Origin: Escherichia virus TH44
Sequence record: MT446415.1
Reading direction: 5' to 3' (one strand)
Length of the DNA stretch: 64,000 nt
Part shown: in pieces, positions 3,417 through 57,534 of the stretch
How the letters are laid out: every line of letters starts with the position of its first letter
How positions within the stretch are numbered: position 1 is the first letter of the stretch
Notes under the pieces: generated by a model
The model's input: only the letters and a program-made list of their open reading frames with translations
The model's database searches: none
What the model was told of the DNA's origin: nothing
Made by a program: the position numbers and the translations under genes

Positions 3417-3445
3417 TGTACATAGTATGGGGATAGACGTATAAT
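3417..3445 (+). promoter_or_regulatory. early-type promoter with class-A leader
   Basis: TGTACA-17-TATAAT; -10 flanked by inverted repeat agtatgggga/ttcccatact. Confidence 0.6.
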
Positions 3446-3481
3446 GTTCCCATACTGAGTTACCAAATACTGGAGAATAAA

Positions 3482-4069: not shown

Positions 4070-4918
4070 ATGTCACAAGCAATTAATGAAATTCGTTCTG
4101 AAGTTAAAAACGCTGTTAAATTCACAGGACGTATTCCAAGCACTAAAGATGTGGTTTTAAATGTTCTGTATATGATGTGGAATAAGTTCAATGTTTGTAC
4201 TAATTCTGCTGAATTCACTAAAATCTTTGAAAAGACCAAAGGTCTTCTTACATTAGAAGACCGAGTCATGAAATCTCTTCATCGTTCAGGTATGTTGTCT
4301 CGTGCTAATGCCAAAATTATTCTTAAAAAATATAACAAAGGCTATGACCTTTATGGTCGTGCGATTAGCACCATGACGTTTGATGAAGTGGTTAAAGACC
4401 TTTGGAAGAACCAACGTCGTTTACTGGCGCTTGGTGCGCGTCTTGCGAGTGGTCAAGATAAACAAATGACCTTTAAAACCAATAATTCTTTAGATTATAA
4501 ACTATTTAATGTTATTAAAGGTCAAAATGAAGGCGAATACAGTATTTCTTCTTTTAGTGGATGTCAATACGAAAACTGGAAATTCCATCTTCGTTTGGCG
4601 TTGTCTGTACTGGAATGCCACGGTGTTCTTACCTTTTATGATGTTCAAACTGGAGGCGTCCAGCGTATTAAATTATGTCAAATTAAAGACCAAGTTGAAG
4701 CCAGCCCTTCAGAACAAGCTCCTAAAATGGAACCTGTTCCAGTGCGAAGCAATGAAAAATATTCAGAGCAAATTGAGCTTTTCACTAAACAGATTGAAGA
4801 ACTTAACATCACCATCCAGCAACAAGATGATGAAATTTTCCGCCTGACAGGGTTGAACAGCGCAGCGAAAGCTGAACGTCAGAAACTGATGAACGTTATT
4901 GAATTGCTTAAGGATTAA
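4070..4918 (+). CDS. hypothetical protein with C-terminal coiled-coil
   Basis: 282 aa; globular N-terminal region, C-terminal amphipathic helix ending LLKD. Confidence 0.6.
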   Translation: MSQAINEIRSEVKNAVKFTGRIPSTKDVVLNVLYMMWNKFNVCTNSAEFTKIFEKTKGLLTLEDRVMKSLHRSGMLSRANAKIILKKYNKGYDLYGRAISTMTFDEVVKDLWKNQRRLLALGARLASGQDKQMTFKTNNSLDYKLFNVIKGQNEGEYSISSFSGCQYENWKFHLRLALSVLECHGVLTFYDVQTGGVQRIKLCQIKDQVEASPSEQAPKMEPVPVRSNEKYSEQIELFTKQIEELNITIQQQDDEIFRLTGLNSAAKAERQKLMNVIELLKD

Positions 4919-10877: not shown

Positions 10878-10944
10878 AAAGGGGTGTACAAGCCCCTTTG
10901 AATGATGTATCATTATCCCATCAACTACTGATGAGGAAAACATA

Positions 10945-11880: not shown

Positions 11881-11903
11881 GGGGTCATGGTATAATGACC
11901 CCA
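11881..11903 (+). promoter_or_regulatory. -10 element (TATAAT) embedded in palindrome GGGGTCA/TGACCCC
   Basis: ggggtcatggtataatgacccc; same architecture as class-C promoters. Confidence 0.45.
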
Positions 11904-11944: not shown

Positions 11945-12271
11945 ATGACTGCATCTATCACTAACACCATCGCTAATTTCGCATTTGCTAAAGTTAACAC
12001 TCTGATGAAATCTGGTTTCGTTACCCCTGAGATTCTGGACCAGTGGGAAGGCGATGTACAGAAGTTGATTATTGCAGAAGGTCAGACAATGGGTAAAGCT
12101 CGCATTCGTGAAAGCCTTGTCCAGTATATCCTGAATGAATTTGATGTAGTAGCGTTTGGTCTGCCGCTTCCACGTGAAAACAAAGAAGTTTCTGACAAAG
12201 CCATCAAGCGTATGAACTCCCAGCGTAAGAAAGGTTTTGTTGACCTGAAAATTATTAAGGGTGCGAAATGA
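11945..12271 (+). CDS. hypothetical protein
   Basis: 108 aa from ATG with GAGGAA SD. Confidence 0.5.
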   Translation: MTASITNTIANFAFAKVNTLMKSGFVTPEILDQWEGDVQKLIIAEGQTMGKARIRESLVQYILNEFDVVAFGLPLPRENKEVSDKAIKRMNSQRKKGFVDLKIIKGAK

Positions 12272-13647: not shown

Positions 13648-13865
13648 TATTACCGATTTTTTAGATAAAATCGAGGAAGACTTTACGGCTCTCCCATATT
13701 TCATTAAACTTTATCTGCGAGACATAAAAGGTCTTCCAATTGATATCGACCCTTTAAACGTCCGGAATCTGGAATTTACTTCACCGGATAATAACGTTGA
13801 TTATCGTTATCATGTGGATAATGCTAATCTATATTTTACAATTGAGTTAACTCCCAAGGATTAAT

Positions 13866-14177
13866 ATGCAAGCTCCAGATATTTCTCAACTGACCGATAA
13901 GCAGATTGAAGAAGCACAGGAACGTCTCGAAGAAGCGAACGCACTCGAAGCAACCAGTCAAGCAGCGAAGATTCTGAAAAAGAATGCTCGCGAAATTGCA
14001 CGACTGAATAAGCATGCTCAAGGGGCAGTGCTGGAAAACAATTTTGAAGCATACAAATACGCTTTAGTTAAACTGCGTGGGATTTACCGCCAACCCGTTA
14101 CGGAAGACCTGATTAAGTTGATGTGGGATTCTACTCGCAAACAAATTTGGGAAATCGTAAATGGCATTAGTAAATAA
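13866..14177 (+). CDS. hypothetical helical protein
   Basis: 103 aa ORF. Confidence 0.5.
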   Translation: MQAPDISQLTDKQIEEAQERLEEANALEATSQAAKILKKNAREIARLNKHAQGAVLENNFEAYKYALVKLRGIYRQPVTEDLIKLMWDSTRKQIWEIVNGISK

Positions 14178-28581: not shown

Positions 28582-28600
28582 AGACCTTCGGGTCTTTTTC
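28581..28600 (+). terminator. rho-independent terminator
   Basis: agacc-ttcg-ggtct + TTTTT. Confidence 0.7.
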
Positions 28601-28670
28601 ATTTAGGGGGTTTACATCCTCATAAAAGGGGTGTACTATTATCCCATCAACTACTGATGAGGATAATAAA

Positions 28671-28919
28671 ATGTTATTAGTTAATGTGCATTACCAGTTC
28701 AAATCTGAAGAAGCTCTCCAAAAGTATGCTGACATTTGTGAGCATAATAAAAGAACAGCTGCCATTGTTGGTCTGAAGCCTTTTAAAATTTTGGATTGCT
28801 CCTTGAACAGAGCAAGGCGCTGGTGTAGTGTTGCCTGTCATGCTTCAGTTGAAGGGAATGATTATTTTTTCATTACTTTCAATGCACAAGATTTTCATTT
28901 AATTAATGAATTAAAATAG
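28671..28919 (+). CDS. hypothetical cysteine-containing protein
   Basis: 82 aa; class-B leader upstream. Confidence 0.5.
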   Translation: MLLVNVHYQFKSEEALQKYADICEHNKRTAAIVGLKPFKILDCSLNRARRWCSVACHASVEGNDYFFITFNAQDFHLINELK

Positions 28920-28948
28920 TGTACAAACCCCTTGTCTTAGGACATAAT
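28920..28948 (+). promoter_or_regulatory. early-type promoter with class-A leader
   Basis: TGTACA-17-CATAAT then 'CCATACTGAGTTACACAA'. Confidence 0.6.
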
Positions 28949-28998
28949 GATTCCATACTGAGTTACACAATAAACCAACTGTTAAAAAGGAAAACCAT

Positions 28999-29301
28999 AT
29001 GTTTAATCAAACCGATATGAACCGTTACTATTTTGGTCAGTTCGCTCGCCGTGATGAAAACTGTGCTGCTCTTATCGCATCAGGCATTCAAACTGGTAAA
29101 TTAATAAAGCTCAAAAGCGATGTTCAACCTTCATCTGTTCGCAGCTCTCTTCGTGAGTATCTGCTTGCAGGCGGTGAAGTGTACGTCATCGCTGAACCTT
29201 TTGTTAACGTGTGTGATGATTACACAATTAGTGTGACTGTTATGCACCCAACTACTGGGAAAATTCGTTGTCTGACTATGCACAACTATGAGTTGGCGTA
29301 A
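28999..29301 (+). CDS. hypothetical protein
   Basis: 100 aa ORF. Confidence 0.5.
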   Translation: MFNQTDMNRYYFGQFARRDENCAALIASGIQTGKLIKLKSDVQPSSVRSSLREYLLAGGEVYVIAEPFVNVCDDYTISVTVMHPTTGKIRCLTMHNYELA

Positions 29302-29310
29302 GTGAACAAA

Positions 29311-29332
29311 AGGGGCTTACAGCCCCTTTTTC
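29311..29332 (+). terminator. rho-independent terminator
   Basis: aggggc-ttaca-gcccct + TTTTT. Confidence 0.65.
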
Positions 29333-29370
29333 TTATGTTATAATGACTCTATCAACTACTGGAGAATAAA

Positions 29371-34333: not shown

Positions 34334-34357
34334 GGGAACCTTCGGGTTCCCTTTTTG
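34334..34357 (+). terminator. rho-independent terminator
   Basis: gggaacc-ttcg-ggttccc + TTTTT. Confidence 0.7.
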
Positions 34358-34379
34358 CTTTTAATAGAGATGGTATAAT
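34356..34379 (+). promoter_or_regulatory. middle-type promoter (TGCTTTT, 11 bp, TATAAT)
   Basis: MotA-box-like element overlapping the terminator T-tract. Confidence 0.4.
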
Positions 34380-34404
34380 TATCTCAACTACAGAGGAGAA
34401 TACT

Positions 34405-37504: not shown

Positions 37505-37532
37505 TGTACACACCCAATGGATGGTGTATAAT
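37505..37532 (+). promoter_or_regulatory. early-type promoter with class-A leader
   Basis: TGTACA-16-TATAAT; -10 flanked by ATGGAT/ATCCAT. Confidence 0.55.
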
Positions 37533-40866: not shown

Positions 40867-40895
40867 TGTACAAGGCCAATGGAAAGAGACATAAT
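40867..40895 (+). promoter_or_regulatory. early-type promoter with class-B leader
   Basis: TGTACA-17-CATAAT then 'CATCAACTACTGATGAGGA'. Confidence 0.55.
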
Positions 40896-40926
40896 CATCT
40901 CATCAACTACTGATGAGGATAACAAA

Positions 40927-41184
40927 ATGATTACTTCTTTTGAAATTGGCCAACAATATGAAATGTCTGCTCTTCAAGCTGCTGAAGCAGGTCTGACCAA
41001 AGCGTTTGAATGTGCATTTGCAAATATTCGTGGTAAAATCTTTACTGTCAATAAAATTGCGGTATATGATAAAGAAACAGATATGAACAAAGGCATCTAC
41101 CTGAACGTGTCAAATGCAAAAGGTCGTCGTGAAATTATGGTTGTACAACCTAATCAACTGGCGATGTTCAATAAGGTTGCATAA
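40927..41184 (+). CDS. hypothetical protein
   Basis: 85 aa from leader-supported ATG. Confidence 0.5.
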   Translation: MITSFEIGQQYEMSALQAAEAGLTKAFECAFANIRGKIFTVNKIAVYDKETDMNKGIYLNVSNAKGRREIMVVQPNQLAMFNKVA

Positions 41185-41933
41185 TGAAACCAGAATTTAT
41201 TGACTTTGATGTTGTAAGTATGTATGTTCGCCCAATTAAACCATTAAAACTTGAGAAACAAAATATGACTATTGAAATTAACAAAACTTATCAACTGATT
41301 GAACCTATTATTCAAAACGCAGCTATGGTTTCTGGATATAATATTCTGACTGATGTTTTAGGTGAAGGTGAATTTATTGTTGAAACTTTTGTAAAAAGTA
41401 ACTGGTTTGATAAAGCATATATTTTGCGTGCACGTCGCCTTGATACAAATGAAGTAGAAAAAATTATGGTTTATGAAGCTGAGATTGAACTCTTCAAAGA
41501 AGTTGAAGAAACTCCTATCAAAGTTGACAAAACCTATCAACTTGTTGGATATGGTGATTTTGATAATACTAATGCATTGAATGCTGGTTGGCGTGTACTG
41601 AAAGGTATTTTTGGATTTGCTCCATTTACCGTTAAAACAGTTAAGTACCACAATCACCAAAGCATCTTTGAATTTACTGCAGTCAATGAATCAGGTGACA
41701 ATCTTGAAGCTATCCTTTATCCGCGCGAATCTGTACTGCTGGAAGAAGTTAGCGTACTGGGCGACCCTATTGACTTGCTATGTAAACCAGTTCAAATCAA
41801 ACGCCCGTTTAATAGTTCCATTTGTGGTTGGGTAACAGACCAGTGGATTGAAGATGGTGTTGAACTCCTGAACGTTGTCCATGCTGGTGAATTTACTGTT
41901 GTACCACGTTCCATGGCTGTTGAAATTTTTTAA
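41184..41933 (+). CDS. hypothetical protein with internal repeat; paralog of 42014..42568
   Basis: 249 aa; two 'KTYQL' modules; C-terminus 'WVTDQWIEDGVELLNVVHAGEFTVVP'. Confidence 0.55.
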   Translation: MKPEFIDFDVVSMYVRPIKPLKLEKQNMTIEINKTYQLIEPIIQNAAMVSGYNILTDVLGEGEFIVETFVKSNWFDKAYILRARRLDTNEVEKIMVYEAEIELFKEVEETPIKVDKTYQLVGYGDFDNTNALNAGWRVLKGIFGFAPFTVKTVKYHNHQSIFEFTAVNESGDNLEAILYPRESVLLEEVSVLGDPIDLLCKPVQIKRPFNSSICGWVTDQWIEDGVELLNVVHAGEFTVVPRSMAVEIF

Positions 41934-41942
41934 TTAAATTTG

Positions 41943-41971
41943 TGTGCAAACTCTTGGGTCCAGAGTATAAT
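41943..41971 (+). promoter_or_regulatory. class-C promoter (-10 inside palindrome)
   Basis: tgtgca..cttgggtccagagtataatggtccc. Confidence 0.55.
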
Positions 41972-42013
41972 GGTCCCGCTGGAGAATAAACTTATTAATC
42001 AAGAGAGAAAATT

Positions 42014-42568
42014 ATGAAAGTTGAAGAAGGTGATATTGTACGTGTTTCTAAAGAATCTCGTTCTAAAGCTGCTGGTCGTTTTGTTGAGGTTGTGAGTCTT
42101 CGCACTAATTTAGTAGGCGGAATTAAAGAAGTTAAAGTGCGTATTATTCCTAAACATGGTCAGGCTGAAACTCAATTGGCTTATGTACATCCTAAATTCC
42201 TGGAATCAACTGAATTTACTGGATATATCGCTCCAGTAGTTGAAGAAGTTGAATCCCATGATGGGTATGTGTGCGAAAGCAATGATATTCGTGGTGTAAT
42301 TGCTCAAGACGTTGAAACCATTGACCAGTCTCATGTTGGGGTTGATTTTAAATGGAAATTGGGTAAAGGTGTCTTTTTCGTTTCACCTAAACCGTTTGAA
42401 TACAATTGCAAGTATGGTCCGACTTATGAAACCACTAGTATGTCCGGTTACATCACCGACCAGTGGGTTGAAGAAGGCGTCAAACTGTATAATATCGTAT
42501 TCCTTGGAACCTTTAAGGTTGTTCCTGAGAGCTTTATCGTTGAGTATGCTGATATTCATTTTGCCTAA
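42014..42568 (+). CDS. MotB-region protein with KOW-like N-terminus (tentative)
   Basis: 184 aa; N-terminal 'GDIVRVSKESRSKAAGRFVEVV'; C-terminus 'YITDQWVEEGVKLYNIVFLGTFKVVP'. Confidence 0.5.
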   Translation: MKVEEGDIVRVSKESRSKAAGRFVEVVSLRTNLVGGIKEVKVRIIPKHGQAETQLAYVHPKFLESTEFTGYIAPVVEEVESHDGYVCESNDIRGVIAQDVETIDQSHVGVDFKWKLGKGVFFVSPKPFEYNCKYGPTYETTSMSGYITDQWVEEGVKLYNIVFLGTFKVVPESFIVEYADIHFA

Positions 42569-42831
42569 ATTATAAAAATGATAGGGTTTTTGCCCTATCA
42601 ATGAGGAGAATATTATGTTTAATGAAGATTGTGTGACCACTTCCCTGACCGCTGAAGAGTTCTGGGAAACCGCTGAAAGTGATAAAGTGATTGTTAAGAA
42701 AAATATCAATGAATTTCTTTGCACCACTGATATCATTTATGTGTATGCGTATGAAGGTGCGGAATTACCTAGCTATGCGCTGTTCCGCGAAGAATCAGAA
42801 GATGGTACAGATTTTTGGAAGGAGACTTATC

Positions 42832-43209
42832 ATGTTGAAATTTGAAACTGATAAATGGTATTATTTTAAAGATAATGTTGCTGAAAGCAGATTCCGTTTG
42901 TTATGCTCTGATAATGATAATATAGCTGATGCTATAATCAATGGTGAAGGATTTAGACCAGTCGGAATTGAAGGCGGTGATGTATATCGGATAGAATTTT
43001 CGACCGGTGGAATAGAGAGAATATTCATAAAGGAAGATGAGCGTCGTTTCTTTGAAGAAGAAAAAGATGACGATACTGAAGATGAATGCGAAGACGCTGA
43101 TGAAGGTCAATTTGAACCCGGTGAATTCCCTTTGACCAAAATCACCATTTCTAATAACTCTGAAGCCTGGACCGTTTACCAGATGTTGAAAGCACACTTT
43201 AAGGAATAA
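42832..43209 (+). CDS. hypothetical acidic protein
   Basis: 125 aa; run of D/E residues. Confidence 0.5.
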   Translation: MLKFETDKWYYFKDNVAESRFRLLCSDNDNIADAIINGEGFRPVGIEGGDVYRIEFSTGGIERIFIKEDERRFFEEEKDDDTEDECEDADEGQFEPGEFPLTKITISNNSEAWTVYQMLKAHFKE

Positions 43210-43210
43210 C

Positions 43211-43387
43211 ATGCCACTTTATGACTACAAATGTCAATCCAATGACTGCGCAAAAGAATACGAAAAAATCAAGAAAATCTCTGAAAGAGATAATGATGTT
43301 TGTCCTGATTGCCATCGGCTGGCTGTTCGGTTAGTCTCGGCTCCTAAACATGTTAATGGCGGTTTTTACGACCTGCTCACTAAGTGA
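43211..43387 (+). CDS. FmdB-like zinc-ribbon protein
   Basis: 58 aa; 'MPLYDYKCQSNDC...CPDC'. Confidence 0.5.
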   Translation: MPLYDYKCQSNDCAKEYEKIKKISERDNDVCPDCHRLAVRLVSAPKHVNGGFYDLLTK

Positions 43388-43393
43388 GGAATT

Positions 43394-43654
43394 ATGAAAT
43401 ACATTAATCGTTCTATTGCAGCACTGGTACTGGCGGTTTCATTGGCTGGTTGTACTGATGCAGATAATGCCATTCGTGTATTAGATGCAAACGGCTATGA
43501 GCAAATCCAAATCACCGGATATAACTGGTTCTCTTGTGGTAAAGATGATTTCCAACATACTGGTTTTACGGCCGTCGGGCCAACTGGTAAGAAAGTTGAA
43601 GGAACTGTTTGTTCTGGATTATTGTTCAAGAACAGTACCATCCGATTTGAATAA
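43394..43654 (+). CDS. putative lipoprotein
   Basis: 86 aa; signal peptide with lipobox 'LAGC'. Confidence 0.5.
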   Translation: MKYINRSIAALVLAVSLAGCTDADNAIRVLDANGYEQIQITGYNWFSCGKDDFQHTGFTAVGPTGKKVEGTVCSGLLFKNSTIRFE

Positions 43655-43672
43655 GGCCTTCGGGCCTTTTTG
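43653..43672 (+). terminator. rho-independent terminator
   Basis: aggcc-ttcg-ggcct + TTTTT. Confidence 0.7.
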
Positions 43673-43695
43673 CTTTAAAATATGTGACTTATAAT
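43671..43695 (+). promoter_or_regulatory. middle promoter upstream of gene 39
   Basis: exact MotA box TGCTTTA, 12-bp spacer, TATAAT. Confidence 0.55.
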
Positions 43696-43717
43696 ACCTC
43701 CATACACAAGAGGAAAG

Positions 43718-45550
43718 ATGATGATTAATAATGAAATTAAAGTACTCTCGGACGTCGAGCATATCAAAAAACGCTCCGGGATGTATATTGGTTCCAGTTC
43801 AAATGAAGCGCATGAGCGATTCTTGTTTGGTGAATATAAGTCCGTAAGCTATGTTCCTGGTATTGTAAAACTGATTGATGAAATTATCGATAACTCTGTT
43901 GATGAAGCAATTCGCACCAGTTTTAAATTTGCCAATAAAATTGATGTTCAAATTAAAGATAATCAGATTTCGGTTTCTGATAATGGCCGTGGTATTCCAC
44001 AGGCAATGGTTACAGACCAAAACGGTGAACAAATCCCCGGCCCTGTTGCAGCATGGACTATTCCAAAAGCTGGTGGCAACTTCGGCGATGATGCTGAACG
44101 TAAAACTGGCGGGATGAATGGTGTCGGGTCTTCTCTGACCAATATTTTCTCTGTATTGTTCACCGGGATTACCGCTGATGGTGCAAATGAAATCACCGTT
44201 AACTGCTCCAACGGTATGGAAAACAAAGGTTGGTCGACCAAGAAATCTAAGGGCAAAGGTACAACTGTTATATTTGTTCCAGATTTTAGTCACTTTGAAG
44301 AAAATAGTCTGTCCCAGATTTATCTGGATATTACATTGGACCGTCTGCAAACTCTTGCGGTTGTTTATCCGGATATTCAGTTCACCTTTAATGGTAAAAA
44401 GGTTGATGGTAATTTCAAAAAGTTTGCCAAGCAATTCGGAACCGAAGTTGTTATCCAGGAAACTGATACAGTATCGATGGCCTTTACGACTAGTCCGGAT
44501 GGTTTCCGTCAGCTGACTTATGTCAACAACATTCACACAAAGAATGGCGGACACCACGTTGAATGTGTTATGGATGATATCTGTGAACACCTTCAGCCGG
44601 CGATTAAGCGCAAATATAAAGGCATCGAGGTGACCAAGGCACGAGTTAAAGAATGCCTCACCATGCTTATGTTCATCCGCGATATGAGCAACATGCGATT
44701 TGATTCCCAGACCAAGGAGCGATTGACTTCTCCGGCCGGTGAAATCCGAAATCACATTAAGATTGATGCTAAGAAAATCGCGCAAGCTATTCTGAAAAAT
44801 GAACCGCTGATTATGCCGATTGTTGAAGCTGCATTAGCCCGTAAATTGGCTGCAGAGAAAGCAGCAGAGACTAAGGCAAATAAGAAAGCTTCGAAGGCCA
44901 AGGTACAAAAGCATATCAAGGCCAACGAATGGGGTAATGATAAGCTGGAAACGACTCTGTTCCTGACCGAAGGGGATTCTGCAACTGGTCCATTTATCAA
45001 GGTTCGTGACCGTGAATTGCAAGGTGCTTATCCGTTACGTGGTAAGTTTAAAAACACATGGGGTCTGAAAGCTGTCGAAGTTATGAAGAACGCTGAAGCC
45101 TTTGATGTGTGTGCGATTACTGGTTTAACGATTGGACAACCGGCCGAGAATATGAATTACCGAAACATTGCTATCATGACAGATGCGGATGTGGATGGTG
45201 TCGGTAGTATCTATCCATCATTATTGGCGTTTTTCAGTAACTGGCCAGAGCTATTCCATGAAGGACGAATTCGCTTTGTGAAAACTCCTGTTATTATTGC
45301 GCAGCTCAAAGATAAACAAGAATGGTTCTATTCTCTTCCTGACTATGAAGAAGCTAAGGATAAACTTCCGAAGCACACCATCCGATATATTAAGGGACTT
45401 GGTTCTCTGGAAGATGCCGAGTACAAACGCGTATTGCTCGAACCAGTATTCGAAGTTGTTCAATTGCCCGACAACTGGAAAGAACTGTTCGAAATGCTAT
45501 TCGGTAAAGATTCCCAGCAGCGTAAAGACTGGATGAATGCGACGCTATAA
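43718..45550 (+). CDS. 39: DNA topoisomerase II large subunit gp39, contiguous 39+60
   Basis: 610 aa; GyrB-like ATPase; no stop or split where T4 separates gene 60. Confidence 0.94.
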   Translation: MMINNEIKVLSDVEHIKKRSGMYIGSSSNEAHERFLFGEYKSVSYVPGIVKLIDEIIDNSVDEAIRTSFKFANKIDVQIKDNQISVSDNGRGIPQAMVTDQNGEQIPGPVAAWTIPKAGGNFGDDAERKTGGMNGVGSSLTNIFSVLFTGITADGANEITVNCSNGMENKGWSTKKSKGKGTTVIFVPDFSHFEENSLSQIYLDITLDRLQTLAVVYPDIQFTFNGKKVDGNFKKFAKQFGTEVVIQETDTVSMAFTTSPDGFRQLTYVNNIHTKNGGHHVECVMDDICEHLQPAIKRKYKGIEVTKARVKECLTMLMFIRDMSNMRFDSQTKERLTSPAGEIRNHIKIDAKKIAQAILKNEPLIMPIVEAALARKLAAEKAAETKANKKASKAKVQKHIKANEWGNDKLETTLFLTEGDSATGPFIKVRDRELQGAYPLRGKFKNTWGLKAVEVMKNAEAFDVCAITGLTIGQPAENMNYRNIAIMTDADVDGVGSIYPSLLAFFSNWPELFHEGRIRFVKTPVIIAQLKDKQEWFYSLPDYEEAKDKLPKHTIRYIKGLGSLEDAEYKRVLLEPVFEVVQLPDNWKELFEMLFGKDSQQRKDWMNATL

Positions 45551-45750
45551 ATAGATACGGGAGAATATTCTCCCGTCTTATAGGAGAAGTCCATGAAAAA
45601 GTGGTGGGTTACGTTGTCAAATGGCGAATACGGTTATCTGTGGGCCGATACTAAACCCCTGTTTGCATCCTTTGTCACCATTATGTGCGAGACCTGGGAT
45701 GGTGAATACTATACTGCATATGGGCAAGTCTATAAAGTTGAGTAGCCAAA

Positions 45751-45772
45751 AGGACCTTCGGGTCCTTTTTTA
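45751..45772 (+). terminator. rho-independent terminator
   Basis: aggacc-ttcg-ggtcct + TTTTTT. Confidence 0.75.
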
Positions 45773-45775
45773 TTA

Positions 45776-45804
45776 TGTACAAGCCATAAAAATTGCGTTA
45801 AGAT
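45776..45804 (+). promoter_or_regulatory. early-type promoter (TGTACA-17-TAAGAT)
   Basis: same -10 variant 'GTTAAGATG' as upstream of modA. Confidence 0.5.
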
Positions 45805-45821
45805 GTCCTTGAGGTGAAAAT

Positions 45822-46106
45822 ATGATTATGTCTGATGGAAGTTTAGTTAATCTACAGAATGTTGCTCGTTGTATTATGGAAGCAGGCCTGAGGAAGGTGC
45901 AGGAGCTCCCAGATAGTGACAGGAAGCGAAGTTACTTGTTGGCTGTAAGAGCATCAGCCATGAGCATTAAGGCTGGCCAGAAGGTCCCTGAGGAGCGAAT
46001 TGAAGCACTCCTTGCATTGATATACCATGACCAAGAACATAAAGCTACCATGCGTAGTATGAGAAAAATATTACAGGAGATTGGAAATGACGAACTTCAA
46101 AGTTAA
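45822..46106 (+). CDS. hypothetical protein (rIIA.1 position)
   Basis: 94 aa ORF. Confidence 0.45.
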   Translation: MIMSDGSLVNLQNVARCIMEAGLRKVQELPDSDRKRSYLLAVRASAMSIKAGQKVPEERIEALLALIYHDQEHKATMRSMRKILQEIGNDELQS

Positions 46107-46297
46107 TATGGAACTGTTTGATAAGGCTATCCATAAAGAATACCGTGTTATCCAACGATTTTTTGATATAAGAGAAGCTGAAGAGTTTAAAGAACGCTTC
46201 AAAGAAATCCGTATTAAAATAGCTTCAGACACCGCAACAAAGGATGAACTTCTTGAAGTTGCAGAATTAATCAAACGTAACATAAAGTGAGAAAAAC

Positions 46298-48532
46298 ATG
46301 ATTTTAGAAACTGAAAAGGAAACAATCCTTGGTAATGGCGCCAAGGCATCAGCATTCACAATCCAGGCATCTCCGAAGGTGTTTAAGATTCTGACCAGCG
46401 ACCTTTATACAAACAAGGTGCGCGCGGTTGTCCGTGAGCTGATTACCAATATGATTGATGCTCATATGCTCAATGGCTGTCAGGATAAATTCATTGTGCA
46501 AGCTCCTGGTGAACTGGACCCACGTTTTGTATGCCGTGACTTCGGTCCGGGTATGAGTGATTTCCAGATTCGTGGTGATGAAAATACCCCAGGTCTGTAT
46601 AACAGTTTCTTTGCATCATCCAAGGCTGAATCCAACGATTTTATTGGTGGCTTTGGTCTGGGTTCTAAATCTCCGTTTAGTTATACAGAGACGTTTAGCC
46701 TGATTTCATATCATGATGGACAAGTTAATGGTTATGTCGCTTATATGGACGGCGATGGTCCACAGATTAAGCCAACCTTTAGCGAACCAATGAAACCTGG
46801 TGACCGCACAGGGATTGAAGTTGTTGTCCCGGTTGATAGTAATGATTTCGGTAAGTTCCGTTATGAGATTGCATATATCATGCGTCCATTTGCTGGGCTG
46901 GCTGAAGTGCAAGGCGTGAACGAAATTGAATACTTCCCGGAATTTGATGATTATTATGCTCCAGCGCGTATTAATTATAGCAGTCCAGAACGTTATGGAC
47001 TTTATGCAATTTACGGCGGTATTGTTTATCCGATTGGTGACGGTTATACAAAGAAAACCTGGATGACTGCCAAAAATGATGTTGTCTTTATTAAGTTCCC
47101 GATGGGTTCGTTGGATATTGCACCTTCTCGCGAAGCATTATCGCTGGACAAACGTACGGTCGCAAATATCGTTGAACGTATTGAATCGCTTGATAAGAAG
47201 GTCATGGAAGATGATTGTAAGAAATGGCAGGAATCAGAATGTCTCCGCCATACATATCGCGAATTGCAGAGTCTGAATTATGAAGCTCGTAATTTTCTGA
47301 AAGCTCGTAATGCTGAAACGAAATTTACGAAATCACAATTGACCTTTAACCAGATGTACGAAATGTTCGAGCTGGACAAAGACCTTATTAATGCCGGGGT
47401 TGTCTATGATATCTATAGCACTACTCGTCTGAAACGTCTGCGTAACTCAAGCTCGAACACGAATACTGCAAGCCTGACAAGCATGTTTGGTATTCATAAT
47501 GATACCTTGAATATTGTTATTGACGATGCTAAAGGGCGAATTGCGATGATTCGGGGCATCAGTTCAATGCTGTATGACACCAGCGCGAAAGCCAAAAAGC
47601 TCAAAGCATCTGGTAAAGTCCCGACTGTACAAGGTAGTAGTCTATTGTTCGTTGACCCAACCAGCGAAATTCAAACACGGTTGATGGTTCAACTCCAGGA
47701 ACGATTTAAAGGCGATACGGTTAATATCTATCGTACGTCTGAACTGACTGCCCTTGTAAAAGACTGGATTCCGGTTGCGGACCCGAAAGAGCGTGTTAAG
47801 TCAAAGACTCCATCGGTGATTCGTTGGACTAAAACCAATGGTCGCTGGCAGTCTGTTGAAGAATTTACATGTGCAGCTGATGCAGAGGAAATCGATGGTT
47901 ATGCTGTATTCATTAACCGCAGTAGCATTTCCCCTTTGAATCAAGAATATGGCACCACGACCTTCGGTACCCAGACATTGTGTAAACTGGCGAATCTATT
48001 GGAAATCAATGAATTCTGTGTTATTCGTCCACAGCTTCAGAAAAAGGTTACAAAGCTGGCGCAGTGCGATTGTCTGATTGAAGCTGCAGTCAATCGTTAT
48101 GTGGAATTGATTGATGCGGTTGATGCGGACCAGTACATTGCCGCTTCAAGCCGTTCGCGTTATTATATTCCTATCCTGTCTGAATATGCAGAACTGAATT
48201 TTATGTTCAAGTATTTTTATGCGAAAGATGTTCAGAAAGATGTGAATACTGATTATGCCGAACTAATGCAGTTCAATAAGTTCTTTGCTTATAACGCATA
48301 TAACAGTGGAACGGTTGATAAGACCATGCAGGAAACGCTGGTCCTTTGTAATAAGATTTATGACGACCTGACCAAAAACGCTTCGGTAACAAGCGATAAA
48401 ATGGTTTTTGAATTTGAAAAGAATCACCCGATTGTTTCACACTTTTTATATAACCGTAACGCTATGTCAACTGAACAAGTACAGAACGTTGCTCAAATCA
48501 TGAAGGCCGTGGAAGCGGCCAATAAGGAATAA
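46298..48532 (+). CDS. rIIA: rIIA membrane-associated protein
   Basis: 744 aa; N-terminal GHKL-type ATPase-like region; followed by rIIB. Confidence 0.88.
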   Translation: MILETEKETILGNGAKASAFTIQASPKVFKILTSDLYTNKVRAVVRELITNMIDAHMLNGCQDKFIVQAPGELDPRFVCRDFGPGMSDFQIRGDENTPGLYNSFFASSKAESNDFIGGFGLGSKSPFSYTETFSLISYHDGQVNGYVAYMDGDGPQIKPTFSEPMKPGDRTGIEVVVPVDSNDFGKFRYEIAYIMRPFAGLAEVQGVNEIEYFPEFDDYYAPARINYSSPERYGLYAIYGGIVYPIGDGYTKKTWMTAKNDVVFIKFPMGSLDIAPSREALSLDKRTVANIVERIESLDKKVMEDDCKKWQESECLRHTYRELQSLNYEARNFLKARNAETKFTKSQLTFNQMYEMFELDKDLINAGVVYDIYSTTRLKRLRNSSSNTNTASLTSMFGIHNDTLNIVIDDAKGRIAMIRGISSMLYDTSAKAKKLKASGKVPTVQGSSLLFVDPTSEIQTRLMVQLQERFKGDTVNIYRTSELTALVKDWIPVADPKERVKSKTPSVIRWTKTNGRWQSVEEFTCAADAEEIDGYAVFINRSSISPLNQEYGTTTFGTQTLCKLANLLEINEFCVIRPQLQKKVTKLAQCDCLIEAAVNRYVELIDAVDADQYIAASSRSRYYIPILSEYAELNFMFKYFYAKDVQKDVNTDYAELMQFNKFFAYNAYNSGTVDKTMQETLVLCNKIYDDLTKNASVTSDKMVFEFEKNHPIVSHFLYNRNAMSTEQVQNVAQIMKAVEAANKE

Positions 48533-48533
48533 T

Positions 48534-49508
48534 ATGTTTAATATCAAATGTATGTCTAAAGCCGAACAAGAACGAGTTGTCTCTCTTTATGAATCTGGTA
48601 ACTATACGCAAGACGAACTTGCACTCGGTTTCGGTGTATCGGTTGACACCATTCGCCGCGTTTTGAAAAATGATAAAGAATCAAAATTAGCTAAAACCAT
48701 TTCTGCATCATTGAAAGCCGCTGTCGGGGTGGCGATTAATGCTCCAGTGACAGTAACGGTTGAAGTTCCGATTGTTGAAGATACAATCGGCGGTAGCCGT
48801 CCAGAAATCGTATGGAACGCATCAAGCAAATTCGTTTCCATCACTGAAGGTCGTACAGTCTGGAACGCAACAAAAGACCATAAACACTTTGATGATATTA
48901 TTCAGGCATTGATTGAATTCCGTTATGAAGATGCTATCGAGTTTATCTCAATCAAAGCTGCAGTACAAAAATATGTGAAAGGTGATGTGCGTATTGAAGG
49001 TGGTAGTCTGTTCTATCAGGGAATTGAACTGCGTTCTGGCCTGGTTACTCGTATCATTGATTCAATGCAAAATGGCGAAGACTTTGAATTCTATCTGCCG
49101 TTCCTTGAGAATCTCCTTGAGAACCCGAGTGAGAAAGCCGTACAGCGTTTGTTTGACTTCCTGGTTGCGAACGATATCGAAATCACCGAAGACGGTCATT
49201 TCATCGCATGGAAAATGGTTCGTGCAACTTACAAAGATTGCCACTCAAACACATTCGACAACAGCCCTGGTCAATATGTTAAAATGCCGCGCTCTCGTGT
49301 GAATGACAATGACGAACAGACCTGTTCAACCGGGTTGCATGTTTGCTCTAAAGGCTATATCGGAAGTGGTTTTGGTCATGGTGATGGACGCATCGTATCC
49401 TGTAAAGTTCACCCGCGTGATGTTGTAAGTATCCCGGTTGATTATAACGATTCCAAAATGCGGGTCTGTGGTTACCTGGTTCTTGATGATGTAACTGAAC
49501 AATTCTAA
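48534..49508 (+). CDS. rIIB: rIIB protein
   Basis: 324 aa; directly downstream of rIIA. Confidence 0.85.
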   Translation: MFNIKCMSKAEQERVVSLYESGNYTQDELALGFGVSVDTIRRVLKNDKESKLAKTISASLKAAVGVAINAPVTVTVEVPIVEDTIGGSRPEIVWNASSKFVSITEGRTVWNATKDHKHFDDIIQALIEFRYEDAIEFISIKAAVQKYVKGDVRIEGGSLFYQGIELRSGLVTRIIDSMQNGEDFEFYLPFLENLLENPSEKAVQRLFDFLVANDIEITEDGHFIAWKMVRATYKDCHSNTFDNSPGQYVKMPRSRVNDNDEQTCSTGLHVCSKGYIGSGFGHGDGRIVSCKVHPRDVVSIPVDYNDSKMRVCGYLVLDDVTEQF

Positions 49509-49515
49509 ATTAATC

Positions 49516-49529
49516 GGGGCTTCGGCCCC
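49516..49529 (+). other. hairpin GGGGC-UUCG-GCCCC without U-tract
   Basis: identical to 19372..19385 core. Confidence 0.6.
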
Positions 49530-49742
49530 TAATGAGGCTTTATGTTAGGTTTCCAAGCACGTGTAGTTGAAGAACATGACCAGTTGGTTTTGAAAATTAA
49601 TGCTCTTGAAGAATTTATTAAAGGCGGTGTTTTTGAAACTCTCGATGCTCGTCAACAAGGTCTTTTGATTGCACAACTCGATGCGATGGGTGCTTATGCT
49701 CATGTACTGGCAGTCCGTATCTCTTATTTTGGTGAATAAATT

Positions 49743-50063
49743 ATGATTAACTATATGAACGTTGGCGATGAATCTATTAACGAAATTCGATTGCATGGTA
49801 ATCATGTTGCGGATATTGTTTATTGTGTTGATTGTCATTATGCTTCTACAAAGTCAACTGGCCGGTTATATGCGAGAGACATCATTCTTGCAACGAAAGA
49901 AGAACTTCGTAGTCTGGACCATTCTACTCTAGCCGAAAGTGTCAGAATTTATTATGGCGTCGTTCATGTAGACAAAGTTTATATTGGCAGTGATTATCAA
50001 GAGCAAGCTGAGCAAAATTCTTTGGATACTGTCGAAAAATCCGATATGTATTTTAAAGGATGA
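49743..50063 (+). CDS. hypothetical protein
   Basis: 106 aa ORF. Confidence 0.45.
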   Translation: MINYMNVGDESINEIRLHGNHVADIVYCVDCHYASTKSTGRLYARDIILATKEELRSLDHSTLAESVRIYYGVVHVDKVYIGSDYQEQAEQNSLDTVEKSDMYFKG

Positions 50064-50067
50064 GCTG

Positions 50068-50661
50068 ATGATTCAGAAGAGTAAAACATGGGAGCATCTG
50101 AAAAAGATGCCCTCCTTCCTTTATACAAAGGAAGACTTAACCCCCGAATCCCTGCAAAAGATTGTAGACACTGCCAGGTATTCATTGCGTAAAGACCCAG
50201 GTCAGGACCGTGAGCAAGTCATGCAAAGATGTATGGTAGCCACAATGGCTGAACAAGCTATTGCTAAATGGACCTCCGGTTTTTTATGTGGCGGTGATGA
50301 AGATTACGATAATCCTTACTCCTTTGCATTTGATGTAGTTTCGAAGGAAGGGGTAAGAATCGAAGTCAAGACTCATCAGTCTGGTTCCAAATGGATATCC
50401 GTACATACTGGCCACCAGGGCGATTATCCACATGGTTACGGGGTTAATCTTGGTCCCTTTATGCAGCACAAGCTTGCTGACCTTATGATTATGTTTAATG
50501 TAAAAGAGACTCTCAAAGGTTATAGATTTAAACCAAAATTCCTTGCTGGGCCTGGTGCTTTCGTTCCTGAGTCTGGTCTTGTGCAGAAGTCACAAGGGGA
50601 TGGTTGGTACCTCCGTTCTTGTTCAGAAGAAAAATTTCCCTATCACCGGTTTACAAGCTGA
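50068..50661 (+). CDS. putative PD-(D/E)xK-like nuclease (position of T4 denB)
   Basis: 197 aa; 'FAFDVVSKEGVRIEVKT' gives D...E-x-K spacing. Confidence 0.45.
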   Translation: MIQKSKTWEHLKKMPSFLYTKEDLTPESLQKIVDTARYSLRKDPGQDREQVMQRCMVATMAEQAIAKWTSGFLCGGDEDYDNPYSFAFDVVSKEGVRIEVKTHQSGSKWISVHTGHQGDYPHGYGVNLGPFMQHKLADLMIMFNVKETLKGYRFKPKFLAGPGAFVPESGLVQKSQGDGWYLRSCSEEKFPYHRFTS

Positions 50662-50708
50662 ACCAACCATGTAATAATGTCCTCACACCAACAAATGAGG
50701 ACATTATC

Positions 50709-50984
50709 ATGGAACACGTTACTACTCACAACATCAAACAAATTCTTATCCAAGCACTCAAAAACAACAACATCAATTTTCCAACCCATGAAATTTTTGA
50801 TGTGGCATTCAACGAAGTCCAGGGTCAAGTTGCATATTATGACGTTATCGTTTATCTTTCAGAATTTGAAGTCTACCACCTGACTGAAATTGCTTTCTAT
50901 CTCTATCGTGGAACAGCAGATTTCACTGGGGTTGTGAATGCAGTTGGTGCATATAAAGAAGTTAAAGAACAAATGCACAATTAA
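50709..50984 (+). CDS. hypothetical protein
   Basis: 92 aa ORF. Confidence 0.5.
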   Translation: MEHVTTHNIKQILIQALKNNNINFPTHEIFDVAFNEVQGQVAYYDVIVYLSEFEVYHLTEIAFYLYRGTADFTGVVNAVGAYKEVKEQMHN

Positions 50985-50995
50985 TTAAAAAGTAG

Positions 50996-51024
50996 TGTAC
51001 ATCAGTATGGAGTCTATGTATAAT
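50996..51024 (+). promoter_or_regulatory. early-type promoter with class-A leader
   Basis: TGTACA-17-TATAAT; perfect 9-bp inverted repeat CAGTATGGA/TCCATACTG around -10. Confidence 0.6.
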
Positions 51025-51228
51025 GATTCCATACTGAGTTACCAAACAGACTGGAGAATAAAATGAAACCTGCTCAATATGCAATGACTTTATACCTTGA
51101 AGTTAATGGCGATATTACTGAATTTTTTAAATTAATGCAACAGCGCGGAAAAAGTTTTGCAGTTACTGAGCGTCAATTTTACGCTTGCCGTAAAAATACA
51201 TACAATCGTTATGCGTGAGGAAAACAAA

Positions 51229-51489
51229 ATGGATATCAAATTATATTACGCCAAGCACAAAGTTACAGGTAAAGTTGTTGCTGCCATGTATGATGCATCG
51301 GGTGAAGATGTTATTACGGAATTATCCCTTTCTAATTGTAGATTTCTTCGTCCTTTGATAGCGTCAAAAAAAGATTTACAAAAACTTATCGACGGTAAAT
51401 TAGATAATGTCGATGGTATAGATATCCATTATGAACTCCGCCATGCACTGAATGATGGGTTTATGGAAATAAAAGAGATAGTATTATGA
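51229..51489 (+). CDS. hypothetical protein
   Basis: 86 aa ORF. Confidence 0.45.
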   Translation: MDIKLYYAKHKVTGKVVAAMYDASGEDVITELSLSNCRFLRPLIASKKDLQKLIDGKLDNVDGIDIHYELRHALNDGFMEIKEIVL

Positions 51490-51761
51490 GCAGCAAAACC
51501 TGGTGTCTTATCTGGATATTGTGTATCCCAGTAATTTGCGTTTGTTTTAGTTTATTATTAATGAAACTTGCATAAAAAAGTGTACATCTCCAGTGGTTGT
51601 AGTATAATGAACCTATCAACTACTGGAGATGATTATGAAAAAGTTACTTAAAGCTATTTGGAACATGTTTGTGCTGTTTGTTGTCCTGAGCATTTTCCCA
51701 ATTGTTTTTATGATTGACCATGTGCGTGTTTACTTTAACTATTTCTTTTGAGGATAATATT

Positions 51762-51968
51762 ATGAATTACAATTCACACTTTCAGAAATCCAATCGTCGC
51801 TTTGACTTTATGTTCAAGTTTATTGTAGCAATGATTATCCTGATTTTCATTGGTGCCATTGCAATGATTGGTTTCCAGGTCTGGATTGCTGCTGAAGTAT
51901 TCACCCAAATCCAGGATAATGGTTTGAAGTCTGTTGTTGATGTAATTTGGAATGGAGCTAAGCAATGA
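51762..51968 (+). CDS. small membrane protein
   Basis: 68 aa, hydrophobic core. Confidence 0.4.
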   Translation: MNYNSHFQKSNRRFDFMFKFIVAMIILIFIGAIAMIGFQVWIAAEVFTQIQDNGLKSVVDVIWNGAKQ

Positions 51969-52210
51969 AACTTTTTAAAGACATTGCAGTTGGTGAAAAA
52001 TTTGTCCTGGGTAATGGTCAACAACTGATTCGCATTTCGCCTTTAATGGATAACAGTGAACGCCCTGTGCGCACTGAAAACTGTTTGGATTATCCTTTTT
52101 ATCAGAAGCGTTTTGCAATTGAAAATAATACTGAGTGTTTCACAGTTGATGAACTGATGGAATCATCAGAAGAAGTTGACTTGTGGGATGGCGCAGTTGA
52201 TGTAGAATAG
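51965..52210 (+). CDS. hypothetical protein
   Basis: 81 aa ORF. Confidence 0.45.
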   Translation: MKLFKDIAVGEKFVLGNGQQLIRISPLMDNSERPVRTENCLDYPFYQKRFAIENNTECFTVDELMESSEEVDLWDGAVDVE

Positions 52211-52239
52211 TGTACAAACTCTTGGGAGCAGAGTATAAT
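52211..52239 (+). promoter_or_regulatory. class-C promoter (-10 inside palindrome)
   Basis: tgtaca..cttgggagcagagtataatgctcccag. Confidence 0.6.
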
Positions 52240-52278
52240 GCTCCCAGTGGATAATAAAATTTAACTGAGGAAATCATT

Positions 52279-52623
52279 ATGTCTAAAGTATTTTTTGGTA
52301 ATCGCAACATTATGTTCTTTAAACAGATTAGCGTATCAGAAGCATTTGATTTAAGTTATTCGGGCGGCACAAAAGCTGTTAACCTTAAAAATTTGATGTC
52401 TGCAGAATTTGCATTCTATCAGGACCCTGAAACTGGTTTCTACAAATTTATTAAGTTCCGCATGACTATGGACCGCGATTATCGTGATGTTTATTATACA
52501 AGTTATGAAAGTGTTGTGAATGCAATTCGTGAAGCTTATGGATTGGATTCGTTATCTCTTGACCGCCTGTATAATGCAAGCCTTTACACCAGCGGATTTA
52601 TTTTAGAACAGCTTCAAAAATAG
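52279..52623 (+). CDS. hypothetical protein
   Basis: 114 aa ORF. Confidence 0.5.
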   Translation: MSKVFFGNRNIMFFKQISVSEAFDLSYSGGTKAVNLKNLMSAEFAFYQDPETGFYKFIKFRMTMDRDYRDVYYTSYESVVNAIREAYGLDSLSLDRLYNASLYTSGFILEQLQK

Positions 52624-52652
52624 TGTACAAACTCTTGGGGTCAGAGTATAAT
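52624..52652 (+). promoter_or_regulatory. class-C promoter (-10 inside palindrome)
   Basis: tgtaca..cttggggtcagagtataatgaccccac. Confidence 0.6.
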
Positions 52653-52696
52653 GACCCCACTGGAGCACAAAACTTTAACTTACTGAGGAAATTAAT

Positions 52697-53146
52697 ATGA
52701 ATACTTACATGACCCGTCGTGACGTACTGAATGCTGGCGCTACCACTGTTGCTTACATCCATAATGGTAATTATGTCGCCGGTCGCCCAACTAAAGAAGC
52801 TATCACCCAACCGGGTTTTTATTTTGTAGTTAAGGGTGAAGGTGAATCGCGTATTGTTGCGGCACGTTTTTACGTTGGTAACCAACGTTCACAACAAGGG
52901 TTTGACACTGTATTAAGTCACATCCGCAAACAGCGTTCACAACTGTCGCGCACAATGGCGAACAATGGTGTTATCTATGAAGTTCTGTTTGTTCCGGTTT
53001 CTAAAATGAAGCCTCTGACAACTGGTTATGGTAAAGGTCAAATTGCAATGGCGTTCACTCGCTCACATAGTTCTGATTGCCAGACCCTTTCAGAAATGAA
53101 TCGCATGCTTGCTGATAACTTTAAATTCATTCTGCAGAGCTATTAA
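52697..53146 (+). CDS. ndd: nucleoid disruption protein Ndd
   Basis: 149 aa; '[28 protein letters not shown]...[17 protein letters not shown]...[12 protein letters not shown]' matches T4 Ndd as recalled. Confidence 0.8.
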
Positions 53147-55176: not shown

Positions 55177-55200
55177 AGGACCCTTCAGGGTCCTTTTTTA
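55177..55200 (+). terminator. rho-independent terminator
   Basis: aggaccc-ttca-gggtcct + TTTTTT. Confidence 0.75.
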
Positions 55201-55214
55201 TTTTAAAAAAGTAG

Positions 55215-55243
55215 TGTACAATCCCCTTGTCTTAGGACATAAT
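55215..55243 (+). promoter_or_regulatory. early-type promoter with class-A leader
   Basis: near-identical to 28920..28948 cassette. Confidence 0.6.
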
Positions 55244-57222: not shown

Positions 57223-57534
57223 GCACGATTTCAATAAGGCGTCTGTCCATAAGGATAAGAAGAAAACTGAAATGCAGTCCAAACGTAAGCAGAAGCACAA
57301 GGGGAATCACTATGAGTCATAACTTAGAGAACACCATCACTGGTCAGCGTACACGCGAGCAGGCTTGCTTTGAGGAATTCCTTGGAGCTGATTTTAAGTT
57401 CCAGGAACCAGTTGAACAGATGTATCAGGAATATGTTGTACAGATGGAAAATCATGTGTACAACCCAGAGGAATAATAGTACAATATCCTTACTGAATAA
57501 TTGAATGTCTTATTGAATACTTGAGTAAATTAAA

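Follow-up and report, generated by a model that had tools for sequence, protein, structure and literature searches.

Covarying arms in probable promoter-early stem-loop cassettes of a Gaprivervirus coliphage

A 64,000-nucleotide (nt) stretch of DNA from Escherichia virus TH44 (MT446415.1; hereafter the window) carries short, dispersed cassettes in which a sigma-70-like promoter sequence is combined with an inverted repeat. In those studied most closely, the -10 box lies in the loop between two arms that differ from copy to copy and stay complementary to each other. These cassettes are almost certainly promoter-early stem-loops (PeSLs), modules of T4-type phages; the element class is already known, and the Gaprivervirus copies are what is new here. 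Taken as a whole, the observations are probably best explained by PeSL cassettes whose hairpin forms in read-through RNA and insulates transcription units. The window is T4-type coliphage DNA from the early region of a Gaprivervirus (VR7/SP18-like), with about 96% identity to the Gaprivervirus coliphages TH41 and UPEC01 and about 95% to VR7, SP18 and VR26.

Anatomy of the cassettes and pairing of their arms

Three cassettes and a fourth palindrome, GGGGTCA-tggtataa-TGACCCC, had been singled out in an earlier note made from the sequence of the window, and all four were located at the positions given there:

41943-41948 (+): cassette 1 (predicted motB promoter), -35-like hexamer TGTGCA, 9 nt past the stop of the upstream open reading frame (ORF)
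41955-41978 (+): cassette 1 hairpin, left arm TGGGTCC (41955-41961), loop AGAGTATAAT, right arm GGTCCCG (41972-41978)
41966-41971 (+): cassette 1 -10 box TATAAT
41979-42016 (+): cassette 1 leader, CTGGAGAATAAA (a remnant resembling a Shine-Dalgarno sequence, SD), then the functional SD GAGAGA and the motB ATG at 42014
52211-52216 (+): cassette 2, -35-like hexamer TGTACA, adjoining the TAG stop (52208-52210) of an ndd.1-like ORF
52223-52246 (+): cassette 2 hairpin, TGGGAGC (52223-52229), loop AGAGTATAAT, GCTCCCA (52240-52246)
52234-52239 (+): cassette 2 -10 box TATAAT; downstream ATG at 52279
52279-52623 (+): ORFan of 114 amino acids between cassettes 2 and 3
52624-52629 (+): cassette 3 (predicted ndd promoter), -35-like hexamer TGTACA, adjoining a TAG stop (52621-52623)
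52636-52659 (+): cassette 3 hairpin, TGGGGTC (52636-52642), loop AGAGTATAAT, GACCCCA (52653-52659), whose final A is the predicted +1
52647-52652 (+): cassette 3 -10 box TATAAT
52660-52699 (+): cassette 3 leader, CTGGAG, then the SD TGAGGA and the ndd ATG at 52697
11881-11902 (+): fourth homologous cassette, GGGGTC(AT)-ggtata-(AT)GACCCC around TATAAT (11891-11896)

The first three share one layout, in which an upstream stop (0 nt before the -35 hexamer in cassettes 2 and 3) is followed by a T(G/T)TACA-like hexamer, a 17-bp spacer, TATAAT, the right arm and a leader with SD and ATG. The seven bases directly 3' of TATAAT complement seven bases of the spacer, so that the -10 box is placed in the loop. 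The right arm fills the discriminator, its last base being a conserved purine 7 nt past TATAAT, while the left arm occupies about -23 to -17; this purine is the expected sigma-70 start site, and both the start site and the firing of the promoters are predictions from sequence. The combination AACTCTTGGG-N6-GTATAATG occurs exactly three times in the window, where 0.03 occurrences are expected from shuffles. The 11881 site aligns with the other three from the arms through the ATG, and has an extended -10 (TGgTATAAT) and no -35 match.

The reading of these elements as promoter cassettes is supported, although the earlier note missed their identity with a published class, and some of the features that it took to be common to all three need amending. 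TGTACA is present in cassettes 2 and 3 but not in cassette 1, and 'ctggag' is replaced by GTGGAT in cassette 2. Likewise, the arms are perfect 7-bp complements in cassettes 2 and 3, but cassette 1 has a T·T mismatch at the centre of its arms and a T·G at their end. The orthologues of cassette 1 are fully paired, as TGGGGCC/GGTCCCA in TH41 and TGGGGTC/GACCCCA in TH57, and between these two there is a compensatory T-A to C-G change. Both 'ctggag' and 'gtggataataaaat' resemble remnants of the SD-ATG found in the wider family, and in these cassettes a second, functional SD follows. At 41951-41984 and 52632-52665, predicted RNA folds lengthen the stem by pairing CUCU (of 'aactct') with GGAG of 'ctggag'.

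The four copies are real, but the family is far larger. An initial promoter finder, requiring exact TAnAAT plus an SD, missed many members, and we used instead an nhmmer profile built from nine window copies, with which the window and the complete genomes of TH41 and TH57 were searched. The profile hit the window at about 20 sites and each of the two genomes at about 35, nearly all of them on the + strand, and a hexamer scan found about a dozen + strand sites of the same design in the window. T(G/T)TACA-N16/17-TATAAT is found in the three cassettes (with TGTGCA in the first) and in most family members.

As had been proposed, left and right arms change together, and two tests place this beyond chance. 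In the first, the left flank and -10 box of each cassette were joined to the cognate right flank or, in turn, to those of all the other cassettes, and folded, so that composition was kept. Cognate combinations were more stable than swapped ones in the window (n=16; mean -8.2 vs -5.5 kcal/mol; z=-4.0), in TH41 (n=33; -8.9 vs -5.5 kcal/mol; z=-7.7) and in TH57 (n=29; -8.3 vs -5.1 kcal/mol; z=-6.2), and in each genome none of 20,000 permutations reached the observed sum (p≤5e-5). In the second, pairs were counted along the 7-bp helix of 19 distinct variants of the sub-family to which the first three cassettes belong, taken from the window, UPEC01, TH41, TH57 and IMG/VR. The IMG/VR variants were gathered with a tight pattern, a looser one (GTGTACA-N16/17-TATAATG) having given mostly unrelated chance matches. 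A standard pair was formed in 99.2% of the 133 cells, against 89.7% in column shuffles (0 of 500 reached the observed value) and only 37-54% when the partners were slid. Two of the seven pairs had double-sided changes (A-U/G-C and C-G/G-C/U-A), and the sole unpaired cell was the T·T of window cassette 1.

The hexamers are invariant across these 19 variants while the arms vary. Furthermore, stems of at least six Watson-Crick pairs enclose 8 of the 116 + strand TATAAT hexamers, about six times the share among other A3T3 hexamers (1.1%). The arms thus stay complementary without maintenance of the arm sequence itself, which supports the proposal of selection on the structure.

Strand, position and the level at which the stem may act

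The imperfect pairs are unevenly divided between the two possible kinds. In the sub-family there were 16 G·U cells and no A·C cell. When both kinds were allowed symmetrically in 30 distinct arm pairs drawn from all cassettes, we counted 14 G·T against 3 A·C (p=0.013), numbers that are small and partly non-independent in that orthologues share changes; two of the three A·C cells sit at a doubtful terminal extension. The sense RNA also folds better than the antisense (Wilcoxon p=5.5e-4). Because each sense-strand G·T corresponds to a C·A mismatch in the opposite strand, the sense strand is the one under constraint, which points to RNA and less to one strand of DNA; we regard this as supportive, not conclusive. 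In an 80-nt RNA context the stems of cassette 2 (z=-2.2), cassette 3 (z=-3.2) and the 11881 site (z=-2.3) were present in both the minimum-free-energy and the centroid structures; for the imperfect cassette 1, z was only -0.6.

The position of the hairpin relative to the promoter also bears on its role, and in TH41 it was distributed as follows:

Overlapping the -10 box: about 16 of 33 cassettes
Enclosing the -35 hexamer: 5 of 33
In the spacer: 4 of 33
Upstream of the -35 hexamer: 4 of 33, canonical UUCG-loop terminators with 7 U in an 8-nt tail
Undetected: about 4 of 33

Across the family, arms range from 5 to 13 bp and loops from 5 to 14 nt, and the place of the hairpin relative to the promoter varies as well. 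If a hairpin may stand anywhere from the stop codon to +1, it is more likely to act on the incoming transcript than in -10 recognition or as an operator. Of the three possibilities raised at the outset for the palindromes, an RNA hairpin in read-through transcripts is the best fit, in agreement with the excess of G·T over A·C.

Each cassette fills the gap between two co-oriented early genes with a stop, a predicted early promoter for host sigma-70 and an SD-ATG leader. The left arm lies in the promoter spacer and the right arm in the discriminator, ending at the predicted +1 purine. RNA from the cassette's own promoter would start at the end of the right arm, and its own transcript would therefore lack the hairpin, both arms being present only in read-through RNA from the upstream gene (or in single-stranded DNA). 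We propose that the hairpin folds in this sense-strand read-through RNA and insulates one transcription unit from the next, either by attenuating or pausing the incoming polymerase or by blocking 3' exonucleases, so that the upstream message would end where the next transcript begins. For this insulating role at the RNA level, the chances seem to us evenly balanced.

Several observations weigh against this proposal. The hairpins that overlap the -10 box have loops of 8-10 nt and no U-rich tail, the following 8 nt containing 1-3 U, and a terminator scan called none of them; efficient intrinsic termination is therefore not expected from their sequence, and they are not, to judge by these features, canonical terminators. 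A hairpin went undetected in some of the TH41 cassettes, as listed above, and the T·T of cassette 1 means that the structure is not strictly required at every site. The bias in the imperfect pairs comes from the small counts already given, and one clear interior A·C is found in TH57 (ATGAGATA/TATCCCAT). Cassettes are only modestly enriched at breakpoints between relatives: about 5 of some 60 ends of high-scoring segment pairs fall within 70 nt of one, where we estimate that about 3 are expected. Finally, the sole experimental terminator test in the literature concerns one RB49 stem-loop.

That the stem acts instead in DNA, we consider unlikely. A hairpin or cruciform, formed in supercoiled duplex or in single-stranded replication and recombination intermediates, would then be a recombination target that mobilises cassettes, a role on which the authors of the PeSL work speculated for a GGGG...CCCC-binding protein, or would expose the -10 box as single-stranded DNA so as to help or hinder sigma-70. 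Perfect copies are indeed predicted to fold as single-stranded DNA (-7.7 to -9.3 kcal/mol; z -3.3 to -4.8), but arms of 7 bp with a loop of 8-10 nt are poor substrates for extrusion from duplex DNA, as is generally known from cruciform energetics, and the cruciform raised in the earlier note is accordingly improbable. Many copies would also give a lop-sided cruciform, the sense G·T being C·A on the other strand, and the placing of the -10 box in the loop is not constant, many members having the hairpin elsewhere or an ordinary terminator. Some indel boundaries do coincide with cassettes, and mini-circles and a crossover within a loop have been reported in RB49 (PMC2839356).

A further point for structure in DNA comes from TH41, where at 4196-4246 the 10-nt loop is exactly reverse-complemented between intact arms (TGGGAGC-ATTATACTCT-GCTCCCA), moving TATAAT to the other strand; the TH57 orthologue at 13836-13889 reads TGGGAGC-AGAGTATAAT-GCTCCTA, with flanks collinear with TH41. 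This inversion looks like the footprint of template switching, or of inversion or recombination, at the palindrome, but there is only one such case, from a record marked UNVERIFIED, and a search of IMG/VR with flanking context gave no further one. It shows at the same time that the events demanded by another explanation are possible at these sites, namely that quasi-palindrome template switching, well documented in T4, corrects one arm to the other, the concerted changes being a mutational by-product with no function. Compensatory changes could arise in this way in one step. However, we find this account quite improbable, as it leaves unexplained the origin and persistence of repeats in most of the roughly 35 promoters per genome, the hairpins and terminators at other positions in other cassettes, and the excess of G·T over A·C, since switching gives perfect Watson-Crick pairs and neutral decay should act symmetrically. 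Nor does it explain why PeSL stem-loops recur with different stem sequences in distant T4-type lineages (PMC4122927).

A palindrome centred on the -10 box is in the classic position for an operator, and the GGG...CCC cores common to many copies might be bound by a dimeric regulator, from the phage or the host, that represses or activates the early promoters. We nevertheless hold an operator, which the earlier note had also suggested, to be most improbable. A conserved half-site is missing: at least 12 arm sequences keep their complementarity (TGGGAGC, TGGGGTC, TGGGACC, ATGGGATA, ATGGAT, GTGGGACC, GTGTAGG, TGATAGGGT and others), and such variation is the signature of a nucleic-acid fold and not of sequence-specific protein contacts. 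The variable arms, loops and hairpin positions argue in the same direction, and G·T pairs break the dyad at the level of the duplex. The idea that a G-rich spacer and a C-rich discriminator are selected separately was rejected because right-arm swaps that keep composition destroy the stability of the stem.

Two other roles, neither of them described for PeSLs, seem very unlikely to us. The stem in read-through RNA could sequester the SD-like or RegB-like GGAG, left open in RNA from the cassette's own promoter, as a strand-specific message switch; the origin of the transcript would then decide how one and the same leader is processed or translated. Alternatively, a hairpin in the non-template strand could present TATAAT pre-melted to sigma-70.

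The wider family, its genes and its plasticity

Five of the six sequence features of PeSLs are present in the cassettes, and the sixth, an AT-rich upstream tract, is present in part. The sigma-70-like promoter has 16- or 17-bp spacing, where PeSLs have 16-18 bp (at 11881 an extended -10 takes the place of the -35 match), and the stem-loop is in or near the promoter, with stems of 7-13 bp enclosing the -10 box and others over the -35 hexamer, in the spacer or upstream. The cassettes are intergenic, bounded by an upstream stop and a downstream SD and start; the stop lies 0-14 nt 5' of the -35 hexamer in 10 of 18 tabulated cassettes, the three of the earlier note included, and an ATG is found 20-50 nt past the -10 box in 17 of the 17 where a downstream start was found. 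Many dispersed copies are co-oriented with the early genes, and cassettes are associated with indels or replacements between close relatives, with modest breakpoint enrichment overall. The AT-rich tract 5' of the -35 hexamer is easily seen in cassette 1 (ttttttaattaaattt) and in many other members (TTTATTTTAAAAAGTAG...); in cassettes 2 and 3 this position is taken up by the last part of the preceding gene's coding sequence. Members carry one of two 3' modules, ...CCATACTGAGTTACCAAA... or ...ATCAACTACTGGAG/ACTGATGAGG..., and the SD-ATG CTGGAGAATAAAATG is frequent among them. The short loop and U-tract of an intrinsic terminator are absent from the hairpins that overlap the -10 box.

Other members of the family in the window, listed with one middle-promoter-like cassette of similar design, include:

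3417-3457 (+): TGTACA, 13-pair stem (one G·T), TATAAT (3440-3445) in or at the edge of the loop
50996-51037 (+): TGTACA, 13-pair stem (one G·T), TATAAT (51019-51024) in the loop
37505-37540 (+): TGTACA, 16-bp spacer, arms ATGGAT/ATCCAT around TATAAT (37527-37532)
34351-34385 (+): middle-promoter-like cassette, MotA box TGCTTT, arms GAGAT/ATCTC around TATAAT (34374-34379)
10878-10913 (+): hairpin over the -35 hexamer, AAAGGGGT-gtacaa-GCCCCTTT, -10 box TATCAT at 10908
29308-29344 (+): terminator-like hairpin over the -35 hexamer, AAAAGGGGCT-tac-AGCCCCTTTT then TCTT, -10 box TATAAT at 29339
55177-55243 (+): terminator AGGACCC-ttca-GGGTCCT + TTTTT upstream of TGTACA (55215), -10 box CATAAT (55238)

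In the middle-promoter-like cassette, the MotA-box-like tttTGCTTtta stands 12 nt 5' of TATAAT (consensus from PMC2988021). Canonical terminators with 4-nt loops and T-runs are found on the + strand at 55177-55194 (loop ttca) and at 45748-45769, 43653-43668 and about 2790-2810 (loop ttcg); several of them lie directly upstream of cassettes that have no stem around the -10 box, such as that at 55215/55238. The -35-like hexamer TGTACA is itself palindromic wherever it occurs, the 57440-57470 region included, and at 57480 it is within an 8-bp inverted repeat (GTTGTACA...TGTACAAC) that has a 14-nt loop and overlaps the end of the upstream ORF. At 40867-40912, the ATG annotated for the next ORF (40879) lies in a cassette-like TGTACA-N17-CATAAT; either the true start of this ORF is further downstream or the cassette is degenerate. 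A scan of the whole 64-kb window against Rfam 15 gave no match at the gathering score, and a search of the available literature for VR7 early promoters found nothing.

The early-region genes of the window run dexA-motB-39-rIIA/B-denB-ndd-52-motA. In UPEC01 the co-oriented order is dexA, motB, goF, gene 39, rIIA, rIIB, denB, ndd, ac, gene 52, motA, asiA, which is that of the classical T4 early region. The gene 3' of cassette 1 is motB (42014-42568; Pfam, 2.8e-50), and a motB domain is found by Pfam in both ORFs that flank this cassette, the upstream one being at 41184-41933. Cassette 3 is followed by ndd (52697-53146; Pfam Ndd, 1e-68), and the 11881 site by an ORF for a DUF7570 protein (Pfam) with its ATG at 11945. 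A Pfam scan of the 114-amino-acid ORFan between cassettes 2 and 3 gave no family.

Cassettes coincide with differences between close relatives. Four phages carry cassette 3 with 100% conservation. Cassette 2 occurs in the window and in UPEC01, and is absent in TH57 and in VR7, where the stop is followed directly by an SD; in EAWsc9 an ORF of 49 amino acids takes its place. The last four codons of the gene upstream differ along with cassette 2 (GATGTAGAATAG vs GACCCTGAATAA). The EAWsc9 ORF between the positions of cassettes 2 and 3 is a diverged homologue with about 65% identity, which becomes 100% from about 25 nt before cassette 3. In TH57, 28583-29307 of the window (about 725 bp) is missing, and the missing segment ends at the 5' edges of cassettes. 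It contains a UUCG-loop terminator and two ORF-plus-cassette modules (cassettes at about 28609-28656 and 28913-28966), and in TH57 the same upstream stop is directly followed by the equivalent of the cassette at 29308. The 75-85 nt of homology between cassettes would also offer sites for recombination, through which ORF-plus-cassette modules come and go.

For annotation, the cassettes are useful as markers of early transcription-unit boundaries and of likely recombination joints in VR7/SP18-type coliphages, a group often used in phage-therapy collections, and they explain the turnover of small early ORFs between near-identical isolates. The covariation statistics, the bias of G·U over A·C and the class that overlaps the -10 box without a terminator tail are modest additions to the picture of PeSLs. 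The bias points to a stem that is maintained in the sense-strand RNA, and not in duplex DNA or as a protein site. Furthermore, the 'terminator' label given to PeSLs becomes testable, because the class without a U-tail may be a pause or stability element and not a terminator.

Comparison with known systems

With intrinsic terminators and the UUCG-tetraloop intercistronic hairpins of T4, the cassettes share a GC-rich sense-strand hairpin just past a stop, and true examples occur within the family (55177-55194, about 2790, and 29308-29330). The hairpins that overlap the -10 box differ from these in their longer loops and missing U-tract, and may act as pause or stability elements. The hairpin promoters of the N4 virion RNA polymerase likewise have a recognition element flanked by a short inverted repeat. 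They have a 3-nt loop, specific stem bases and a phage-encoded polymerase, and need extrusion with single-stranded DNA-binding protein, whereas here we find sigma-70 hexamers, a loop of 8-10 nt and a hairpin whose position varies across the family. An analogy with integron attC sites was drawn by the authors of the PeSL work themselves: in both cases imperfect palindromes are linked to cassettes, structure is conserved over sequence, folding is on one strand and gene cassettes are gained and lost. The present elements differ in having the palindrome inside a promoter, no extrahelical-base signature and no identified integrase or site-specific recombinase.

The closest systems are other PeSLs, first described in the T4-type phages RB49 and phi1 (Arbiol, Comeau et al. 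2010, PMC2839356). These are strong sigma-70-like early promoters with a stop upstream and an SD and ATG downstream, and stem-loops 'overlapping the -10 box', with GGGG...CCCC stems and G-T pairs, are one of the five positions described; PeSL-like sequences in JS98 are also mentioned (PMC2839356). In a reporter assay one PeSL had strong promoter activity and one stem-loop reduced lacZ comparably to rrnB T1 (PMC2839356). Circular excision products (mini-circles) were found between neighbouring PeSLs of RB49, and a crossover within the loop of a stem-loop was reported (PMC2839356). The cassettes of the window share with them the stop, the promoter with a 17-bp spacer, the G...C stem with occasional G-T, the SD and the ATG, a stem-loop mostly between the boxes or over the -10 box, many copies among small non-essential early ORFs, and indels between close relatives. 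They differ in belonging to Gaprivervirus and not to the RB49 group, in their -35 hexamer (T(G/T)TACA vs TTGACA) and in an AT-rich upstream tract that is weak, or is coding sequence in cassettes 2 and 3; and whereas the promoter, terminator and mini-circle data come from a few RB49/phi1 elements, those of the window are known from their sequence.

PeSLs were later extended to T4/PST (TTTACW-N17-TAYWAT) and KVP40/nt-1, with MotA-box versions termed PmSLs and the ndd.4/.5 region of T4/PST as an example (Comeau, Arbiol, Krisch 2014, PMC4122927). The T4/PST pattern matches T(G/T)TACA-N17-TATAAT, the ndd region is among the published examples of exchange by cassettes, and the stem with a MotA box at 34351-34385 resembles a PmSL. 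PST stems are AGNA...TCNT and stand just upstream of the promoter, whereas about half of those here have the -10 box in the loop or at its edge, with stems that are mostly (A)TGGG.../...CCCA(T). A homologue of cassette 1 is present in the Tequatrovirus fPS-90, a Yersinia phage, where the motB promoter (705-760; annotated 'predicted early promoter') reads TTTACA-aactct-TGGGACC-agag-TATAAT-GGTCCTG, the arms TGGGACC/GGTCCTG including two wobble pairs. The motB cassette therefore predates the split between Gaprivervirus and Tequatrovirus.

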